Below are positions 998 through 28,860 of a stretch of 32,000 bases of DNA, in pieces. Under the pieces are notes generated by a model. That model was not told the origin of the DNA, made no database searches, and saw only the letters and a list, made by a program, of their open reading frames with translations. The DNA lies in assembly GCA_027925325.1 (NCBI GenBank), contig AP027133.1:180001-212000 (forward strand), in the 5' to 3' direction. The position numbers were made by a program, and so were the translations under genes. Every line of letters begins with the position of its first letter. The stretch's first letter is position 1. Source of the stretch: Candidatus Saccharimonadota bacterium (lineage in GTDB: Bacteria; Bacillota_I; Bacilli_A; Mycoplasmatales; Hepatoplasmataceae).

Positions 998-2279
998 TAT
1001 CACAGAAATTATTAATAAAAAAGCTAATAAAAAAGAACTAACAGATCAAGAAATTGATTTTTTTGTTAATAATTTACATAAAAATATTAAGAAATATCAA
1101 GTATCAGCGATGCTTATGGCAATTAAAATAAACGGTCTAAATGATCGCGAACTTATAACTTATCATAATGCTATTCTTAATTCAGGCAAAATTTTAGATT
1201 TAGATGAAAATAGATTTGATAAACACTCCACAGGCGGATTGGGGGATAAAGTTTCAATTATCCTTGCACCTATTTTAGAAGCAATGGGGATAAAATTTTG
1301 AAAATTAAGTGGAAGAGGACTTGGCTTTACCGGAGGAACGATTGATAAATTAGAATCGATCAAAAAATTTAATACAGATTATAGCCTTAAAGCAATTTTA
1401 AAAAAAGATAATGCAAATCATAATTTAATTATTGGACAATCAAAAAATTTAATTCCTGCTGATAAATATACATATTCAATTAGAGATACTTCTGGTTCGG
1501 TAGATTCAACTGAGCTTATTGCCGCTTCTGTTATGAGTAAAAAGATTGCAATGGGAGCAAAAAACATTTTAATTGATTTAAAAGTTGGAAGTGGGGCATT
1601 TTTTAAAACTTTAAACCAAGCGGAAAAATTAGGTAAAAAATTACGTTTAATCGGTGAGAAAAGCAATCGAAATATTTATATTATTTATACAAATATGAAT
1701 GAACCTTTGGGGAAATCAATTGGAAATTCAATTGAAGTAAAAGAAGCGATAAGTTTTTTAAAAAATGAATATAAAGATGAAAAATTAGAAAAAATTATAT
1801 CTAAAATTGCAATTGAATTTTACATCAAAAAAAATAATGTCTCTTTAAAAGAAGCACAAGAAAAATATGATCATATTTTAAAAAAACACAAAGGATATGA
1901 TGCTTTTTTAAATATTTTGCAAAATCAAAAGGTAAAAATTAAAGATTTTAATGAAGATAAAATTTTTCTTCCCAAGCATAGTTATAGAATAATTGCTAAT
2001 AAAAGTGGATATTTTAAATTTAAAAATTTGGAAGATTTAGGATATTTTCTAATTGAAATTAAAGCCGGAAGAAAAAATGATCACGATTCTATTTATAGTC
2101 ATGCAGGCGTTGATTTTTTCGTAAAAAATGGAGATTTTATAAATAAAGGAGATTTGCTTGCTAAAATTTATTCAAAAGAAAGATTAACAGAAGAGCAGAT
2201 CAGGCGATTTGAAAATACTTATTTTCTTACAGATAAAAAAGTAGAGATAGAGGAGATAATTCTTAAGGAAGAGAAATGA
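987..2279 (+). CDS. deoA: pyrimidine-nucleoside / thymidine phosphorylase
   Basis: Track ORFs 987..1301 and 1533..2279 share one frame and join through TGA at 1299. Motifs HSTGGLGDK, SGRGLGFTGGTIDKLES, PADKYTYSIRDTSG and IAASVMSKKIA are present. Confidence 0.9.
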
Positions 2280-3028
2280 TAGAAAAAGGACAATTTAAAA
2301 TTAATGAATATGAAGGTCCTTTAGATTTATTACTCGAACTTATTAAAAGTAAAAAGATGGATATTACAGCGATTTCAATTGTTGAAATCGCCGATCAATT
2401 TATCAAAATTGTAAATGATTTAGAAATTATTAATCTTGATCTTGTTTCTGAATATTTTTTATTAGCAACACAACTTTTAGATTATAAAACAAAATATTTA
2501 CTGGCAATAGAAGAAGGAAAAGATTTTGCTAAAAAAATAGAATTATCAGAAGAGGACCTTTTACAAAGATTGATAATTTATGAAAGCTATAAAAAAGCAA
2601 GTGAAAAAATTTTTAATCTTTACAAAAATAATTTTCTTTTTGGTCGAAAAGATGATCAACTTGAGGATTTTTTATTAACAAATACCGAAAAAAGATATCA
2701 ATTAGTTAGTAAAGGGGTAATTGATATTGAAAAGGCGATTGATCGTATTTATAAATCATTAGAAAAAAATAAGCAAGTAAATACAACTTTAACAATTAAA
2801 CGAATTTCAATCGAAGATCGCAAGAAGGAATTATCTTTATTTTTGCAAAAAAGAAAAAAAAATTATAAATTTTCTGATTTAATTAATTTTGAAAATTTTT
2901 CAAGATATGTGATAGCGATAACTTTGCTTTGTTTACTTGAAATGGCGGCAAATGATCAATTAGAATTAAGGCAAAATAATGATTTTTCTGATATTTTAAT
3001 TATAAAAAAAGCAAATTTAAATTTATAA
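2276..3028 (+). CDS. scpA: segregation and condensation protein A
   Basis: The N-terminal FKINEYEGPLDLLLELIKSKKMDI matches the ScpA signature (F.GPLDLLL.LI). The start overlaps the deoA stop by 4 nt, and scpB follows. Confidence 0.85.
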   Translation: MIEKGQFKINEYEGPLDLLLELIKSKKMDITAISIVEIADQFIKIVNDLEIINLDLVSEYFLLATQLLDYKTKYLLAIEEGKDFAKKIELSEEDLLQRLIIYESYKKASEKIFNLYKNNFLFGRKDDQLEDFLLTNTEKRYQLVSKGVIDIEKAIDRIYKSLEKNKQVNTTLTIKRISIEDRKKELSLFLQKRKKNYKFSDLINFENFSRYVIAITLLCLLEMAANDQLELRQNNDFSDILIIKKANLNL

Positions 3029-19528: not shown

Positions 19529-21220
19529 ATGAAAAAAAGCAGTATTTATATTTTATTTTTATCTTTATTTTTTCTATTTCTTGTTCCGTTTGTTATTTTA
19601 TTTTCAATAGATAATAAGCAAAATAAATTAACTGCTGAAGTTAATGCTAATTTTATTGACCAACATATTGAAAAAAGTTATCAATTTGATGAAGGTGATG
19701 CAGCTGCTGTTACTAGAGATCAAGATGGCTATGATCATCTTTATATGTGGGGAGATAATAGTCACTATCAATTAGGTTTAAATTATCAAACCGCTTATTT
19801 TCCTGATTCAAGCGATTTAAATCTTACAGCAAAAAATTATTATTATTATCCGCAGGAGGTAGCAATTACAAAAGATAACAAAGGGATGATTGATGATTTA
19901 AAATCAACAAAATTTAATACAATTGTCTCTTTTATTGATCAAGATGGTAATTATCATCTTTATATATATGGATCAAATGTAAATGGACTATTAACAAAAG
20001 ATCAATTATATTTAAATTCATCAGATCCAATTATTATTGATATTCCAACTAATTTAAAAATTGAAGATCTTGCGCTTACCGATGATAATGTTTATCTTTT
20101 ATTAAAAGAAAAAAGTGGAAAGAAGCAATATCTTTATAGTTGGGGATTAAATATTAATGGTCAATTGGGATTAGGATTTAATGATAATTTTATTCATAAA
20201 ACTCCTAATGTATCAAAATATATAAATGGTTTAAGTACAGATGATTATGAAATAGAACAAATCTATGCCCAAAATGATGCCTTATATTTAGTTACGAAAA
20301 ATAAAAATGAAGATGATGATTTTGAAACAATTTATACTTTAGGATCAAATCACGATGAACAATTAGCGATTACTGGGTTAGATTATGATGATAATATTTT
20401 AATTCCAACTGAAATTCCTTATTTTGAAGAAATTAAAGCTAATAATATCTATCTTGATGGCAATAATCATTATGGAATTTATGCGCAATATCAATTATTA
20501 AATCAGACCTATTTGGTTAGTTGAGGTAATAATAGAAATAATCAATTGGTTAACATTAATCAAAATATAATCAATCAACCAACAGGCGTCTTTGCTGATC
20601 AAATTGGTGATAGTGGTGAACCTATTTATGATCCGCAAGAAAAAGATTTATTATTTTCTAATTATGGTTATGAACAATCTTTTTTAATTTATCAATATCA
20701 AGATCAATATCAACTTTATGGTTGAGGATTAAATAATCACTATAGTTTAGGAATATCTGATAATCAGATTCATAATACTGAACCTATTGCTATCAAGAGT
20801 ATCAATAATCAAAATTATCAAGTAAAAGGATTATCAACCGGTAGTCATAGCAGTAGTCTTATAATAGAAGATCAAGATAACAATCAAAGTTTATACACAT
20901 GAGGATATAATCAAACCGGACAATTAGGAAATGGAGAAGAAGCATCATTTACTGCAGAACAAAATACCACTTTTTATCTTTCTTTACAAACTTACATTGT
21001 AAAAGAAAGTAGTAATAATTATTATAAATTGCCTCTTGCTATTTTTATTGTAATAGTAATTTTATTATTATTAGTTCTTATCACTTTATATATCAGCGTT
21101 AAGAGATATAAAGTCCTTGAGGCTAAAAAAAAGCAAACAGGACAACAACAAAATGAAGTTTTGAATCAAGAATTAACAGCAGAATTAACAACACAAAATT
21201 TAGATTTGAATGTAGATTAA
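19529..21220 (+). CDS. membrane-anchored RCC1-like 7-blade beta-propeller protein
   Basis: ATG at 19529 gives MKKSSIYILFLSLFFLFLVPFVILFS, a signal peptide or signal anchor. There are seven [LY]Y.WG.N..GQLG-type blades: HLYMWGDNSHYQLG, HLYIYGSNVNGLL, YLYSWGLNINGQLGLG, IYTLGSNHDEQLA, LVSWGNNRNNQLV, LYGWGLNNHYSLG and LYTWGYNQTGQLGNG. Three blade Trp residues are TGA-encoded. A C-terminal TM segment LPLAIFIVIVILLLLVLITLYI is followed by a short charged tail. Confidence 0.75.
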
Positions 21221-22320
21221 TTTTTAAAACTTATATTTTCATTTTTAGCTTTAATTAAATCGATTTTTTGTTTATCTTTTGCTTCAAATAAAAGATAAAT
21301 TTTTCCTTTTAAGTCGTTAACACGATTTGTTCTTCCGATTCGATGTTTAAAATAATTTAAATCAATCGGTAAATCATAATTTATGATGTGACTAACATGA
21401 TTAAAATCAATTCCTCTTGCATATAAATCAGTTGTAATGAGATAAATAATTTTTTCGTTTTTTGCTTCATTAAAAACTTGTTTTCTTTTTCTTGGATTTA
21501 AATCAGAATTAAAATATCTAATATCTTTAAAATTATTTTTATTTAAGAAATTATAGATTTTTTTAACTTCTTCATTTTTATTAGCAAAAATGATCACAAA
21601 ATAAGGATTTATTTCATTACTTTCTAACAATTCTTTTAATACTTGTAATTTATCGTTCTCGATAACTTTAATTAATTTGATATCAACTTTTTTTGTTAAT
21701 TTATTATCTAAATCAATTAATTTAGGATTAATTTTAAATGTTTTTTTAATTTTATTTTGTAAATCACCAGAAAGTGTAGCTGAAAAAAAGGCGTAGGTAA
21801 TTTTGTTTTTTAATCTTAAATTTTTAACAAATTTTGCAATTAAATCTAATTGTTTAAAATGATAAATCATATCGATTTCATCTACTATTAAATATTTTAA
21901 TTCTCTATAGTCAATTGGTGATTTATTTTGCAAAGCAAAAATTTTTTCAATCGTTGTAACAATTATTTTGCTTTTTTTGTGATATTTCCTTTTTTCTCAT
22001 TCATAATCAAGATTTTTGGTAATTGCAAAAAAATCAAAATTAAAATATTTATTTAGCTTTTGTAATTGATTTTTTAATTGTTGTACAAGTTCATTGGTTG
22101 GAACGATAATAATTGCTTCAACATTATTTTTACTTTTATCTAAATTATTGATAATCGGTAGAAGATACGCTAATGTTTTTCCTGTTCCGGTCGGTGATTG
22201 ACAAAAAAGATCATCATTTTTTAGCAAAATCGGAAATACTTCTTTTTGTACTTGTAACAAATCAGTAAATTTTTCTGCCTTTAAATAATTATTTAAATTT
22301 TCTTTCAATTCTAGTTTCAT
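21217..22320 (-). CDS. DEAD-box ATP-dependent RNA helicase
   Basis: Minus-strand ORFs 21997..22320 and 21217..21933 share a frame and join through one TGA (21997-21999 on +). Motifs SPTGTGKT (I), IVDEID (II variant), SAT (III), TDLYARGID (V) and HRIGRTNR (VI) are present. Confidence 0.88.
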
Positions 22321-23982: not shown

Positions 23983-24714
23983 ATGAAATTTAATTTTGCT
24001 GGAAGAACAGTTAAGGGAGTACGGGTTGAAAATCAAGATAACTATACTGTTTTTTTAGCAAAAAATAAATCTTATTTCGTTGCTGCGATCGCTGATGGGA
24101 TGGGTGGATATCGTGGCGGTAAATTAGCATCAGAGGTAACGATAAATTTTATTGAAAGAGATTTTAAGGATCTTAATTTAGAGTATAAAACAGATAATGA
24201 TATCTTTAATTTGATGATTAAAGAGATTAGATTGATTCAATTAAAATTGATTAATTTAGTAAAAAAAGAAAATGCTCCCTTCAATATGGGAACAACAATT
24301 AATTTCAATTTAATTTATAAAAATAAGATATATACTTTAAATATTGGTGATACAAGATCAACAAATTATTATCAAAAAGAGTTAAAAGATATCTCAGAAG
24401 ATCATAATTTAGCAGCACTTGCCAAAAAAAATAAGTCTTTTCGCAAGTATTATAAATATACAAATTATCTTACTTCTGCCCTTGGGCCAAAAAAAGAATC
24501 AATATTAGATATTTTTATAACAAATATCAAACAAAAAGGGATTTTAATTGTTGCATCAGATGGGATTCATAATTTTGTAAAAACAAAAGAATTATTAAAA
24601 ATTTTAAAGACAGATATTTCACTTTCCAAAAAAGTTGATAAGATTATTTCTAGAGCTATGAAGAATCAATCAAATGATAATATGACATGTGTCTTGGTGG
24701 AGTATGGAGTTTAA
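23983..24714 (+). CDS. prpC: PP2C-family Ser/Thr protein phosphatase
   Basis: Motifs NQDN, ADGMGGYRGG, GDTR, ASDGI and DNMTCVLV are present. It lies immediately upstream of, and overlaps, the kinase gene. Confidence 0.85.
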   Translation: MKFNFAGRTVKGVRVENQDNYTVFLAKNKSYFVAAIADGMGGYRGGKLASEVTINFIERDFKDLNLEYKTDNDIFNLMIKEIRLIQLKLINLVKKENAPFNMGTTINFNLIYKNKIYTLNIGDTRSTNYYQKELKDISEDHNLAALAKKNKSFRKYYKYTNYLTSALGPKKESILDIFITNIKQKGILIVASDGIHNFVKTKELLKILKTDISLSKKVDKIISRAMKNQSNDNMTCVLVEYGV

Positions 24715-25726
24715 ATCAAATGTAATTATTAATAATAAATATAAAATTGTTTCGGAAATTGGAAAGGGAGCTTCTGCTGTTGTCTATCTTGGATATGACT
24801 TACTAAATAATAAAAATGTTGCTTTAAAAATTCAAAATCAAAAAGATGAATTTTCTAATATGGATAAAAGATTTAAATTAGAGGCAAATACTTTGCTTAA
24901 TTTAAATCACCAAAATATCGTCGATACATATGATTACTTTACTTGAAATAATCGTCGTGTGATTGTAATGGAATATTTAGATGGGAAAACACTTGAGAAA
25001 TATATTAGAGAAAAGCAATATCTTTCTTCAAAAGAAGTTGCAACCTTTGCAATTGAAATTTTGGAAGGATTAGATCATGTTCATCAAAATGGAATTATGC
25101 ATCGTGATCTCAAACCAGCTAATATTACGATTACCGTTGATAATAAACTCAAATTAATGGATTTTGGTATTATTCAAACTTCAATTAATCAAGAATTAAC
25201 AAGGCAGGCAAGCATCATTGGAACGATCCAATATTTAGCACCTGAGATATTTAAAGGTGAAAAATCTTCTCCTCCTTCAGAAATGTTTTCAATTGGGGTA
25301 TTACTTTATCGAATGTCAACCGGAGTTTTACCATTTAAGGGAATATCACACGAAGATACAGCGAAGAAAATTTTAAATGATGATCCGTTACCACCAACAA
25401 ATATTAATAAGATGCTTGATTTAGAATTAGAAAAGATAATTTTAAAGTTATTGCAAAAAGATTATTATAATCGTTACCAAACGGCGCGCGAGACGATCAA
25501 TGCTCTTAAGGATTATTTAATAAACCGGGAGCAATATAAAATCAATCAATCAACGAAATTTCTGCAAGATAGGCAAGTTATCGAAAATAATAATCAGACC
25601 TTATCAAAGAGTAAACAAAAAATAAAAAAGAAAAAAGCAAAAGAAATTAAATTAATAAATTATTTGCTTTTTTTTATTGTAATTTTTTTAATATTAGCAC
25701 TTATTATGATTCCTATTTTTATTTAA
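24704..25726 (+). CDS. prkC: Hanks-type Ser/Thr protein kinase, C-terminally membrane-anchored
   Basis: ORFs 24689..24946 and 24959..25726 share a frame and join through TGA at 24944. ATG at 24704 is the likely start. Motifs GKGASAVVY, VALK, HRDLKPAN, DFG and APE are present. A single C-terminal TM segment (LLFFIVIFLILALIMIPIFI) ends at the stop codon. Confidence 0.88.
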
Positions 25727-25798: not shown

Positions 25799-26212
25799 AT
25801 GAATAAAAATAGAAAATTAAATTTTAATCTAGAGTATCAGAAATTTTTTAAAACTCCCAATTGGGAGTTAATAGAAATTTTATATTCAAGAAATAAATAT
25901 AGCATTTTAAGAGAAGATCATATAGCAATTAAAATTAATACTAGAAAAAGAAAATTAGAATTTTTACAAATTTATTTATATTTACAAATTGTAAAAAATG
26001 GCAATATTAATCCAATTGAGATTATTGAAGTATATGATAATTTTTCCGATTATATTGATTCGATTTTATCTAAAAATATTGATGAAAAACATAAAAATGA
26101 TTTTGAAATAAAAATAATTAATTTAATTTTATGCTTAAGAAATATTAATACAAAAATTTCTTCTATATTGTATTCTTATATATTTTCATTTGAAAAAACA
26201 TTAATTATTTAA
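25799..26212 (+). CDS. hypothetical protein (137 aa), first ORF of the accessory island
   Basis: The ORF is intact with an ATG start, and TATAAT lies at 25779-25784. I see no recognisable motif. Its 3' end overlaps the open frame of the next ORF. Confidence 0.4.
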   Translation: MNKNRKLNFNLEYQKFFKTPNWELIEILYSRNKYSILREDHIAIKINTRKRKLEFLQIYLYLQIVKNGNINPIEIIEVYDNFSDYIDSILSKNIDEKHKNDFEIKIINLILCLRNINTKISSILYSYIFSFEKTLII

Positions 26213-26889
26213 TAAATCATAAATTTATAAGTAATAATTTAAATATTTTAGAAATTATTTCTCATAATAAAAAGATTGAAATTTCAAAAAATAAAATTAA
26301 AAATTTACAAGAAAAAGATTATATAATTACGGAAAAAAATCTTTTTGTTAAAAATGCAAAAATTATGGAAGAATTATATTTTAAAGAAAAGATATCAATA
26401 TTAAAATATCTGCAAAATGAAAAATTTTTAACTTTACAAGATTTGATAAAAAGAAAATTTATTAGTTCAGGGAAAATAAAGGAAAGAGAAAATTTTTTTA
26501 GAAAAAAAGGTTTTAGTGAAGAGGGAATAAAAAATGGAATATGAAATTATTTTATAGAAAGATTACAAAAAACTAGTGATTTGAGAAATAAAATATCTCA
26601 TCTTGATAATTTAATTATTAAAAAAAATGATTCCGAGGATTTATTAAATTATTTTTATGGTCAGTTCGATCTCTTAAGAAATGATTATACAATAGAAATT
26701 TTTTATAAGATTAAATTAATTTTTTTGAAAAATAATTTAATATCTAGAAATGATATTTTAAGAAATCATTATGAAGATTTCTTTGCTTTTAAAATGAAAA
26801 AGAACAAAAATAATAAAAATGAACAATTCTTAAAAGAAAGAATTGTTCAAGATAAACATACAAATTTGTCTTTAAATTCACACAACTAA
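26149..26889 (+). CDS. HEPN-motif (RNxxxH) protein, Abi-like candidate; start codon unresolved, possibly frameshifted from the upstream ORF
   Basis: Read with code 4, this frame is open from 26149 to TAA at 26887-26889 through two TGA codons. The track shows only 26581..26889. R-N-K-I-S-H lies at 26584-26601, in the context WNYFIERLQKTSDLRNKISHLDNL. The first in-frame ATG is at 26365. The region upstream of that ATG reads like winged-helix segments (LNILEIISHNKKIEISKNKIKNLQEKDYII). Confidence 0.4.
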
Positions 26890-26940
26890 ATGTGCTACAG
26901 TAAAGGATTTATGTTCCTTCACACAACTAAATGTGCTACA
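26877..26940. repeat. perfect 23-nt direct repeat x2 (TTCACACAACTAAATGTGCTACA) separated by an 18-nt unique spacer
   Basis: Copy 1 is 26877-26899 and copy 2 is 26918-26940, identical at 23/23 positions. The spacer GTAAAGGATTTATGTTCC is 26900-26917, giving a 41-nt period. Copy 1 contains the stop codon of the HEPN-motif ORF. Confidence 0.9.
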
Positions 26941-27020
26941 TATCTATTATATATAAATTTTATTTTAAAAATAAAATATTTAAAAAATTAGATAAAATTA
27001 TCATAATTTTACTATTAACT

Positions 27021-27040
27021 TATAATTATTTTAAAAGGAG
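27021..27040 (+). promoter_or_regulatory. candidate -10 box plus strong Shine-Dalgarno for the hidden propeller gene
   Basis: TATAAT is at 27021-27026. AAGGAG is at 27035-27040, 6 nt before ATG at 27047. Confidence 0.4.
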
Positions 27041-27046
27041 AATTAA

Positions 27047-28414
27047 ATGAAGAAATATTATGGAATTTTATTAATTCCACTACTAGGAATAATTCCTATT
27101 AATAAAAATATAATTAACAAAGATAATACTAATTTTGAAGGACAGAATGGTGTAATTATTGATATTTCAGCGCAAGAGACCTGAACAGGAGCAATATTAG
27201 ATTCAGATTTAGATGGATATGGTGATTTTGTTTATATTTGGGGTAATTTTAATTCAGAACCAACAAAATTTGATTTTGCTTGAAATGGCAATTTGATTAA
27301 TTTAGAATTAGGCTCATATTTATCTGCAGGAGTTACGGTTGATATCGATTATGATGGATATGCTGATACTTTATATATGTGAGGAAATAATCAACATGCG
27401 CAATTAGGAAATGGAACTTATGGAAATTATGATTTAAATGATCCAATTAAAATAACTCCCGAAGGACAGGATAATTGAAATGGTAATATTATTGATTTAT
27501 CATTAGGTAGTTATAATACATCAGTTATTATTGATACCGATTATGATGGATATGCCGATACATTTTATTCATGAGGAGATAATATCGGAGGGGAAAATGG
27601 TAATGGTCAAAATGGACTTAATACAGAAGGAGAAGATCAATATGTTTTATATCCTCAAGAAATAGCTCCAGAAGGAAGAGGGGGTTGAAATGGTAATATT
27701 ATCGATCTTGATTTAGACTCAATTACCTCTGCTGCAACTGTTGATGGAAATTATGATGGATATTCCGATACCTTATATATGTGAGGAACCGGTGTTTATA
27801 ATTATTATGGACATGGTCCTGTTTTATATCCAACAAAAATAATCCCAGAAAGAGAAGATGATTGAAGAGGAGATATTGTTGATTTTGATACAGATTATCA
27901 TAATACAGGGGTTGTTGTAGATACAAATTATGATCATATCGGTGATACTCTATATATTTGAGGTTATGCAAGTGAAGGTCAAATTGGGAATGGATATTTT
28001 GAAGATACTAGAGAAAATTTTCCGATTCAAAATACCTTTTTTGTTGATAAAAATATTATAAATCTTGAAATTAAAGATGATGCCCTTGCTGTTTCAACCG
28101 ATGAGAATTTAGATGGTTATGCCGATACCCTTTATATGTGAGGATATAACAATAAAGGTCAACTTGGTGATGAAACAACGATAAGTAAAAGCACACCAAC
28201 AAAAATAATTCCCGATCAAAAAGATAATTGAGGCGGAAACATTATCGATGTATCATTAGGTGGAAGAGATTCAATGGTTTTAACCGATCAAAATAGTGAT
28301 AATTTAGGAGATACAATTTATATGTGGGGTGATAATCAGTTTTATCAATTAGGATTTTTATCAGAAGATGAAATCGTTTCAACTCCCTATCAAATAATTA
28401 CAACAATTTTTTAA
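27047..28414 (+). CDS. secreted 7-blade beta-propeller protein, RCC1-like with a DxDxDG-type loop in every blade (455 aa)
   Basis: No + strand ORF appears in the track because 12 in-frame TGA codons break it. Read with TGA=Trp, the frame is open from ATG at 27047 to TAA at 28412-28414. The N-terminus is MKKYYGILLIPLLGIIP. Seven repeats follow the pattern W.G.IIDL.LG...(D.[DN].D[GHN]..D)TLY.WG.N..GQLGNG. TGA falls at the conserved blade Trp positions. Confidence 0.8.
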
Positions 28415-28560: not shown

Positions 28561-28860
28561 ATGAATAAAAAATACAGTCCTTATCTTGGTCCCTTGCAAG
28601 GGACTGAAATTTTAAAAAAGTCACCTTTTGAAGTAGAGGATGATGATGGAAAATATAAAATAATTAAATGCAATTGTGGATCAACTGAATTTAAAAAAAC
28701 AAAAAATTATTATGGTGATAATGAACTTTCTTGTGAATACAATATATATTGTATTAAATGTAATAAAAGAATATGATTTCGTGATGATGATAATACCATC
28801 GGAGGAAAAGAAGATCATAGATTTTTTTATAAAGAAACAGTAGAATATAAGAAAGTTTAA
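28561..28860 (+). CDS. small zinc-ribbon protein (99 aa), hypothetical
   Basis: ORF 28561..28776 continues through TGA at 28774 to TAA at 28858-28860. Cys pairs C-N-C and C-I-K-C lie about 27 aa apart. An AGAAAGAAG purine tract precedes the ATG. Confidence 0.5.

Follow-up and report, generated by a model that had tools for sequence, protein, structure and literature searches.

RCC1-like domains (RLDs) such as those of UVR8, RPGR, HERC2, RCC1 itself and the bacterial 'alpha-tubulin suppressor-like RCC1 family' (PF00415 and PF25390) form a repeat family of seven-bladed propellers with four strands per blade and the strand signatures L-Y-x-W-G-x-N-x-x-G-Q-L-G and H-S-G-x-T. A separate group of propellers, the 'calcium blades' of Rigden et al. 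(2011; PMC3123361), carry in a blade hairpin a Dx[DN]xDG site with an acidic residue two positions past residue 7; they include integrin alpha, the Bacillus subtilis rhamnogalacturonan lyase, PilY1 and a fungal lectin, and were argued to share an FG-GAP-related origin, RCC1 being unmentioned. Pereira and Lupas (2022; PMC9218822) likewise treat DxDxDG as a hallmark of the VCBS/integrin lineage and place RCC1 and BLIP-II in a lineage of their own. Here we analyse a 32-kb stretch of the genome of Candidatus Hepatoplasma scabrum Ps-JP (AP027133.1), a Mollicute symbiont of the isopod gut; the stretch is referred to throughout as the window, in which the gene at 27047-28414 on the forward strand encodes a predicted RCC1-type propeller with a loop of the calcium-blade type in every one of its seven blades. 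Under our favoured reading, to which we give moderate confidence, the protein would be an exported RCC1 propeller, probably a binder of some host ligand, with up to seven convergently acquired Ca2+ sites arranged as a ring on one face.

Neither the gene nor its assignment to a family and a propeller fold is new to the public record. Kawato et al. (2024; PMC10928387) described a genome of 606,194 bp for Ca. H. scabrum Ps-JP, which came from the woodlouse Porcellio scaber, and listed ten of the encoded proteins as having 'slight similarity' to the RCC1 repeat. These emerged from a screen for eukaryote-like proteins, and ColabFold gave a seven-blade propeller for a longer homologue from H. crinochetorum. 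A protein identical to the 27047-28414 product is present in the public collection, its nearest relatives being same-genome paralogues named HPPSJP_... and H. crinochetorum entries annotated as 'RCC1 domain-containing protein', and the gene almost certainly corresponds to an entry among the ten for H. scabrum. Both HPPSJP_1900 and HPPSJP_1990 appear among the ten in Table S5 of PMC10928387. Since the two RCC1 genes of the window, at 19529-21220 and 27047-28414, are separated by eight genes, a gap that fits the tags 1900 and 1990, the second is most probably HPPSJP_1990 (BDV03478.1). The initial annotation of this stretch had called the gene hidden, which holds only when the DNA is read in the standard code. 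What appears to be new is that every RCC1 blade has the loop, and that the loop is tightly conserved and confined to a small Mollicute clade. The word 'calcium' occurs 0 times in PMC10928387 and the loop motif is not mentioned there; in the searchable literature (RCC1 with DxDxDG, calcium or Mollicutes) we found no earlier description of a Dx[DN]xDG-xx-D loop in RCC1 propellers. Whereas only a longer paralogue was modelled by Kawato et al., and proteins such as HCTKY_2170 combine a seven-blade propeller with four Ig-like domains, the 27047-28414 product is a minimal form that consists of a signal-like N-terminus and a propeller only. Our analysis draws on sequence and predicted fold only. The protein is laid out as follows, residues being numbered in amino acids (aa) and model confidence given as the predicted local distance difference test (pLDDT).

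27047-28414, forward strand: coding sequence, 455 aa in translation table 4, TAA stop; most probably HPPSJP_1990 / BDV03478.1 of Ca. Hepatoplasma scabrum Ps-JP
27047-27100, forward strand: signal-peptide-like N-terminus MKKYYGILLIPLLGIIPI, with a positively charged n-region, a hydrophobic core of 14-15 residues and no lipobox Cys
27101-27148, forward strand: polar N/K-rich linker, aa 19-34, mostly of low model confidence (pLDDT <50 for residues 1-27)
27149-28411, forward strand: predicted seven-bladed RCC1-like beta-propeller, aa 35-455, strand order per blade IIDxxLG / SGVTID / TLYMWG / PTKI

By sequence profile and by its predicted model, the product of 27047-28414 is a seven-bladed RCC1-type propeller and a member of the RCC1 family, as the initial annotation had proposed. 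Pfam PF00415 (RCC1) matches it in four stretches with 98.3 bits against a gathering cutoff of 21.7; the whole-domain model PF25390 reaches 105 bits, under its cutoff of 150, and NCBIfam gave no match for this protein. Its best relatives of solved structure by sequence are UVR8 (4.5e-11), the HERC2 RLDs and RPGR. AlphaFold2, run on a 32-sequence alignment, produced a model with a pLDDT of 87.1 and a predicted template modelling score of 0.86, in which 27 strands are arranged in seven four-strand units and the first strand begins at residue 36. When this model was compared with the Protein Data Bank (PDB) by Foldseek, the 49 best matches were all RCC1-like domains, led by UVR8 (E 4.7e-25; template modelling score 0.86 normalised to the target) and followed by RPGR, RCC1, HERC2, WBSCR16, RCC2, Prp20 and Kti13. 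No integrin or FG-GAP propeller stood among the 50 Foldseek matches listed, so that the question raised at the outset, whether the fold lies closer to RCC1 or to FG-GAP, is answered in favour of RCC1.

The strand signatures of the family are retained to different degrees. Y-x-W-G is present in all seven blades. Each loop had been said to stand immediately before TLY(M/I/S)WG.N..GQLGNG; T[LFI]Y-x-WG does follow the loop in six blades, blade 1 having FVYIWG, and blades 2, 5 and 6 keep the whole N-x-x-G-Q-L-G portion, blades 3 and 7 part of it and blade 4 a degenerate version, while in blade 1 it is deleted. Two features distinguish the protein from other RCC1-like propellers in sequence. A nine-residue Dx[DN]xDG-xx-D loop replaces the usual four-residue 'x-D-G-x' turn in all seven blades, and the connection from blade to blade, W-x-G-N-I-I-D, contains an extra conserved Trp.

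The seven loops start at aa 52, 99, 163, 233, 292, 352 and 414, and their sequences and order are exactly those first reported for D-x-[DN]-x-D-[GHN]-x-x-D:

27200-27226, forward strand: blade 1 loop, DSDLDGYGD, canonical Dx[DN]xDG-xx-D; D52 and D60 invariant in the alignment of relatives
27341-27367, forward strand: blade 2 loop, DIDYDGYAD, canonical; D99 and D107 invariant
27533-27559, forward strand: blade 3 loop, DTDYDGYAD, canonical; D163, D167 and D171 invariant
27743-27769, forward strand: blade 4 loop, DGNYDGYSD, canonical; lost in one H. crinochetorum lineage
27920-27946, forward strand: blade 5 loop, DTNYDHIGD, degenerate, with His for Gly at position 6; D292 and D300 invariant
28100-28126, forward strand: blade 6 loop, DENLDGYAD, canonical; D352 and D360 invariant
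28286-28312, forward strand: blade 7 loop, DQNSDNLGD, degenerate, with Asn for Gly at position 6; D414 and D422 invariant

Five of the seven loops (blades 1, 2, 3, 4 and 6) thus match the calcium-blade signature exactly, the other two having H or N at position 6. Seven motifs in one protein compare with a mean of 0.03 and a maximum of 2 in 20,000 composition-preserving shuffles. In the AlphaFold2 model the loop links the second and third strands of the repeat unit (IIDxxLG / SGVTID / loop / TLYMWG / PTKI), and DSSP assigns all seven blades alike: position 1 ends a strand and position 9 lies one residue before the next. The alignment with UVR8 sets the loop opposite gaps at the usual 'DG' turn.

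Loop conservation was counted over the 91 of 96 Hepatoplasma-family blades that pass a filter constraining positions 1, 3, 5 and 9; as 95% of blades pass, the bias is small. Positions 1 and 9 are Asp in 100% of these blades. Position 3 is D in 58% and N in 42%, position 5 is D in 85% and N in 15%, position 6 is G in 77% and N in 11%, position 7 is Y in 68%, and position 8 is A or G in 97%; positions 2 (T, S, Q and others) and 4 (L, Y, N and others) are variable. The first and ninth Asp residues are invariant in six of the blades among sequences that are 36-50% identical. The loop is of fixed length and its conservation (0.67) is as high as that of the core strands (0.63-0.64), whereas the three other classes of loop score 0.47-0.55 and range from 4 to 21 residues in length.

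This pattern bears on whether the loops bind metal. Outside the cell each loop would chelate one Ca2+ through the side chains of positions 1, 3, 5 and 9 and the backbone carbonyl of position 7, giving the protein five canonical, strong sites and two weaker ones. We consider it on balance probable, judging from sequence conservation, that there is one Ca2+ per loop. The principal alternative is that the Asp/Asn loops are a metal-free extension of the hairpin, stabilised by Asx turns together with the position-7 Tyr and the adjacent Trp of W-x-G-N, both conserved, or are themselves the surface that contacts a ligand, for example an acidic patch that would bind another divalent metal, a mineral surface or a host protein of basic charge; the likeness to calcium blades would then be incidental to an Asp/Asn-rich composition, and the proteome is indeed rich in N, D and K. 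Shuffles of the same composition yield 0.03 motifs, however, and conservation sits at positions 1, 3, 5, 6 and 9, the ligand positions having nothing but the O-donor residues D, N or T and position 8 being small, whereas L, Y, K and N are tolerated at positions 2, 4 and 7. A chelating loop would be expected to show such a pattern; a general acidic patch would not. The length of the loop is also fixed family-wide, which again speaks against a metal-free hairpin or contact surface.

Several observations nevertheless weigh against Ca2+ binding, and most of them are what a metal-free loop would lead one to expect. AlphaFold2 folds the propeller confidently with no ion, the 10-residue model blocks that cover the loops scoring 91-97. 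Two of the seven loops are without Gly at position 6, and in the GLR43 group position 3 is Thr, an uncommon ligand. The loop of blade 4 has been lost in one lineage that keeps the protein, which would make individual sites dispensable. A profile of the loop and its flanks found no significant match to a solved Ca2+ site, its best E-value being 0.22. More generally, Dx[DN]xDG is short and Asp-rich, so that prediction from sequence gives false positives, and Rigden et al. call sequence-based prediction of such sites work in progress (PMC3123361). Overall we judge the metal-free alternative unlikely, though the most serious of those we considered, and Ca2+ chelation is the reading that we prefer.

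Since the seven loops share one position in the repeat, they would be arranged as a ring on a single propeller face. Because consecutive connections of a beta-meander alternate between faces, we infer that the seven loops and the W-x-G-N connections lie on one face and the variable A-B and C-D loops on the other. The ions would stiffen the loop face, and a host or luminal ligand would then be bound by the more variable loops.

The same signature raises the question of descent. The calcium-blade signature of nine residues, its place in a propeller-blade hairpin and its recurrence in several blades are common to calcium blades and the 27047-28414 product, as is the extracellular setting predicted for the latter. 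The initial annotation had gone further and suggested a calcium-stabilised hybrid propeller; taken literally, FG-GAP/integrin blade segments would have been grafted into RCC1 blades, so that the loops would be homologous. What stands of this is that an integrin-type signature with conserved ligand positions is present in every blade; the shared ancestry is not supported. In favour of grafting, the nine-residue signature is identical in form to that of integrin and calcium-blade loops, and the flanks are superficially alike, with a hydrophobic strand, the loop and then a hydrophobic strand ending in Gly. The flanking strands are nonetheless of RCC1 type, carrying the signatures H-S-G-V-T and L-Y-x-W-G that are common to RCC1 proteins with no loop. 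Neither FG-GAP (PF01839) nor VCBS (PF13517) matches the protein in Pfam at E<=1, and neither occurs in the precomputed domains of the Hepatoplasma family. Following the criterion of Rigden et al., we ran the profile of the loop with six-residue flanks (78 sequences, 21 columns) in one hmmsearch pass over all PDB sequences; it retrieved no calcium blade of an integrin, PilY1, lectin or lyase, and its sub-threshold matches were mainly Dx[DN]xDG sites of EF-hand type.

The Ca2+ loop of integrins joins strands 1 and 2 of the blade, whereas the loop described here joins the second and third strands of the sequence unit in the AlphaFold2 model and would thus lie in another connection. It also occupies all seven blades, rather than three or four as in calcium blades, and belongs to the RCC1/BLIP-II lineage, not that of VCBS, with no profile or fold link between the two. 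Hybrid ancestry was rejected on the Pfam results (E<=1), the 50 Foldseek matches listed and the single-pass loop-and-flank search, and we regard it as very unlikely. To judge from its sequence and model, the protein probably works like a calcium blade, with one structural Ca2+ per loop, without belonging to that family by descent.

An origin of the loop in place, by convergence within the RCC1 lineage, is most likely, given the missing FG-GAP/VCBS match and profile link, the separation of the two lineages (PMC9218822) and the occurrence of intermediate loops in related Mollicutes. In such a course of events the four-residue x-D-G-x turn between the second and third strands would have expanded to a fixed D-x-[DN]-x-D-G-[Y]-[AG]-D loop, with no recombination with an FG-GAP propeller. 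To follow the distribution of the loop we took the 120 best matches of a word-indexed search together with the 150 best of an exhaustive profile search over 1.84 billion representatives, in which 78,497 representatives were RCC1-like at E<=1e-3; a scan of GTDB genomes covered loci with the word DTLYMWGxN. Among these best 120 and best 150 matches, 33 proteins have a nine-residue loop at the same blade position. Those with names all come from Ca. Hepatoplasma or a 'Mycoplasmataceae bacterium' metagenome-assembled genome (MAG), and the rest have a Mollicute-like composition. The other bacterial RCC1 matches, giant multi-propeller proteins included, have the short 'K-x-D-G-x-LW-x-WG' turn. The nine-residue loop therefore appears to be confined to a narrow set of proteins from Mollicutes.

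Intermediate-length loops, for example N-D-G-x-N-D-x-LY-x-WG, are found in 'Mycoplasma sp. Bg1', in P0040 and P0044, and in the second RCC1 gene of the window. The Bg1 protein, of 517 aa and seven blades (LSMX01000003.1, locus 1450-3000), has the loops VINDGTNDSLYMWG and IVNDGQNDYLYTWG. The window paralogue is:

19529-21220, forward strand: RCC1-like protein of 563 aa, probably HPPSJP_1900, with an N-terminal hydrophobic segment, a C-terminal transmembrane helix and a charged tail

A comparison of the two window proteins, which had been proposed from the outset, shows them to be distant, with 26-41% identity over 46-79 residues and 59-69% over stretches of 16-27 residues. The paralogue has no full loop; instead it carries the intermediate-length loops RDQDGYDHLYMWG, IDQDGNYHLYIYG and EDQDNNQSLYTWG, which may represent an evolutionary step from the short RCC1 turn to the nine-residue loop. 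Intermediate lengths of this kind suggest growth in place by steps and argue against grafting.

Individual loops can also be lost. In P0005 and P0006, which are Ca. H. crinochetorum proteins, and in P0008 and P0010, from metagenome assemblies, blade 4 alone has no Asp loop (IINNSRTGEDQLYMWG) and the other six blades keep theirs. P0006 was dropped as a one-to-one orthologue of the window gene on account of its different gene neighbourhood. Its locus (H. crinochetorum CP006932.1, 4001-8561) adjoins an opposite-strand gene for a 990-aa RCC1-like protein and has four short-chain dehydrogenase paralogues upstream, unlike the surroundings of 27047-28414, and the family is thus dispersed, not syntenic, with about ten paralogues per genome.

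A different Dx[DN]xDG loop, 'PTPIDVDGDGTxGNEKIIDxxLG', is found in three to five blades of the MAG proteins P0027, P0035 and P0099, where it connects the fourth strand of one unit to the first strand of the next. By topology it should lie on the same face as the loops of the 27047-28414 product. P0035 also has a precomputed match to PF13517 (FG-GAP-like), which might be taken in support of hybrid ancestry, but the match concerns this other loop. The occurrence of a second Mollicute subgroup with the loop in another blade connection suggests a second, independent gain in RCC1 proteins of Mollicute type, and with it repeated selection for Dx[DN]xDG sites. The fullest version of this history is that in isopod-associated Mollicutes the RCC1 lineage independently gained a calcium blade by steps from 4 through about 7 to 9 residues, with a separate gain in the second subgroup, and that the resulting surface proteins serve as Ca2+-dependent host-binding modules. 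We put this forward tentatively and judge it, taken as a whole, slightly more apt to be wrong than right.

Variation in blade number, for which the initial annotation saw a substrate in the DNA-level repetition of the blades, was rejected. Repeats do occur at the places noted at first (about 27355, 27543, 27757 and 28114), but they are weak: identity between blades is 62-82% over at most 61 nt, and the longest exact shared word is 15 nt. Moreover, the comparison with homologues showed seven blades in every intact member of the family. P0013 of the same genome (HPSSJP_2380 in Table S5) has 360 aa, five blades and no signal-like N-terminus; its C-terminal end is garbled and Cys/Trp-rich (…HSEWCYCWYWFGWIC), and from its sequence it is probably a frameshifted or decaying copy.

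For the loops to meet Ca2+ as proposed, the protein would have to leave the cell. The 27047-28414 product starts with MKK followed by YYGILLIPLLGIIPI, with Kyte-Doolittle values of up to 2.8 in 11-residue windows. The N-terminus contains no Cys, hence no lipobox, as had been noted, and has no obvious A-x-A site. The segment, which has a pLDDT <50 in the model, is kept in relatives, and other members of the family have C-terminal transmembrane anchors or additional C-terminal domains of Ig-like type. We think it likely that the protein is exported by a Sec-type signal-like N-terminus, because the anatomy of a signal and the disordered linker are kept in relatives, because paralogues are anchored or Ig-like, because the bacteria are regarded as ectosymbionts (PMC10928387), and because Dx[DN]xDG sites are strongly biased to extracellular proteins, secreted or surface (PMC3123361). 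One point tells against this part of the proposal: the hydrophobic core may be an uncleaved anchor.

Among RCC1-like propellers are nuclear or cytosolic proteins, unlike the one described here with its predicted export, and the repeat family includes guanine nucleotide exchange factors (GEFs). The presence of GEFs in the family, together with the recovery of these genes in the screen for eukaryote-like proteins, would fit a cytoplasmic or host-injected effector that mimics a Ran/GTPase exchange factor, in the manner of the Legionella RCC1-repeat effectors. Kawato et al. themselves take the similarity to be at the level of fold and the bacteria to be ectosymbionts (PMC10928387). Bacterial RCC1-like proteins are, moreover, very abundant, as the count of representatives given above indicates, and the best bacterial relatives are of surface type, with signal or transmembrane segments and Ig-like domains. 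Mollicutes are not known to possess machinery for injecting effectors. With a signal-like N-terminus on the protein itself, an effector role is very improbable, and GEF activity is not expected of it.

A precedent for the role that we favour, that of an exported propeller that binds, is BLIP-II, a secreted bacterial seven-blade propeller of the RCC1 lineage that acts by binding, not catalysis (PMC9218822). BLIP-II is absent among the sequence and fold matches listed for our protein. It is not known to carry Dx[DN]xDG loops. In the digestive gland of the isopod, the 27047-28414 product could be a binder of the adhesin-like or lectin-like kind. That the Ca2+ ring rigidifies the propeller for such a role is speculative, and in this specific form we would call it rather doubtful.

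All of the above depends on reading TGA as Trp, and on this the coding status of the region had been made to hang. The frame at 27047-28414 comprises 455 codons and is open only in translation table 4, ending in TAA. In the standard code the forward strand yields pieces of at most 46 aa, and the only open reading frame (ORF) seen there, as first observed, is antisense. The gene has 11 in-frame TGA and 2 TGG codons for Trp, not 12 TGA as had been counted, the twelfth asterisk being the TAA stop. Ten of the 11 do coincide with the two recurring Trp residues of the blades, five with that of Y-x-W-G and five with that of W-x-G-[ND]; the remaining one is W46. Read in table 4, the window (~24% GC) becomes a tight array of genes, nearly all on the forward strand, among them those for guanylate kinase, a PP2C phosphatase / Ser-Thr kinase pair, RsmD-like and cytidylyltransferase-like proteins, NusB and a DEAD-box helicase; Trp codons in the remaining window genes are TGA in 53 cases and TGG in 7. 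No gene for tRNA-Trp(UCA) was found within the window.

A sceptic might see in this region no coding sequence at all, or a decayed pseudogene, with a long table-4 frame that is fortuitous, given that the standard code breaks the frame 11 times. All genes of the window need table 4 to code, however. In the alignments, the TGA codons stand opposite the Trp that is invariant in the Y-x-W-G strand of UVR8, HERC2 and bacterial RCC1 proteins from table-11 organisms, and 10 of the 11 fall at Trp positions kept in homologues. Full-length homologues at E = 1e-107 to 1e-114 and the confident AlphaFold2 model speak the same way, and we give a non-coding region hardly any credence. The organism, on the evidence of the table-4 array, the preference for TGA over TGG and the placement of TGA at invariant Trp positions, is one that decodes TGA as Trp; from the alignment of these codons with Trp across plants, animals and table-11 bacteria it follows that the gene is real, and by its sequence it is an ordinary, expressed-looking one. 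Three further features belong to the locus:

27035-27040, forward strand: Shine-Dalgarno sequence AAGGAG, read from the sequence, ending 6 nt before the ATG
26998-27026, forward strand: promoter-like TTATCA, 17-nt spacer, TATAAT; weak, with 10 of 12 consensus matches
27723-27971, reverse strand: antisense ORF of 82 aa with a TTG start in the standard code, the longest standard-code ORF of the region

The Shine-Dalgarno sequence is the strong one initially reported. Promoter-like matches in this AT-rich region are no commoner than in shuffled sequence (20 found against 15.5 expected). The antisense ORF was rejected as a gene, being a chance frame that lies wholly within the conserved forward-strand coding sequence.

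Among the neighbours, the 99-aa ORF just downstream (28561-28860, forward strand) has the Cys pattern C-x-C … C … C-x-x-C and no Pfam match; the pattern is suggestive of a small zinc-ribbon-like protein. Directly upstream of the propeller gene, ORFs at 25799-26212 and 26365-26889 on the forward strand (137 and 174 aa) have no Pfam match, and 26001-27000 is the interval of lowest GC in the window (16.7%). At 23983-25726 (forward strand) the PP2C phosphatase gene is followed by that for the Ser/Thr protein kinase, which has a C-terminal hydrophobic segment; when read in table 4 from its first possible start (TTG, 24635), the kinase ORF overlaps the phosphatase gene at the end of the latter. The DEAD-box helicase gene at 21217-22320 is the only convincing reverse-strand gene in the window, and the cumulative GC skew climbs monotonically over the window apart from a small dip at 21-22 kb.

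If the loops bind Ca2+, the presence of the motif in every blade, with apparent evolutionary intermediates still living, would make this family a clean natural example of a metal site built into a repeat protein by convergence, and possibly a template for the design of symmetric metal-binding propellers. The motif would gain a new structural context, and the convergent evolution of metal sites could be traced within it. In practical terms, only a standard-code reading of Mollicute DNA makes the gene vanish; public annotation already includes it. Isopods cycle much calcium at each moult, and their hepatopancreas stores metals. In a host that handles such large calcium fluxes, surface propellers present at ten per genome would, if the proposal is true, be Ca2+-dependent host-binding modules. 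The family is one of the few expanded surface-protein families of the Hepatoplasmataceae, uncultured symbionts of isopods and other crustaceans, and Ca2+ binding by its loops would provide a testable handle on how these bacteria interact with their hosts. The propeller at 27047-28414 is a neat case of probable convergent metal-site evolution and a useful lead for the biology of Hepatoplasma.

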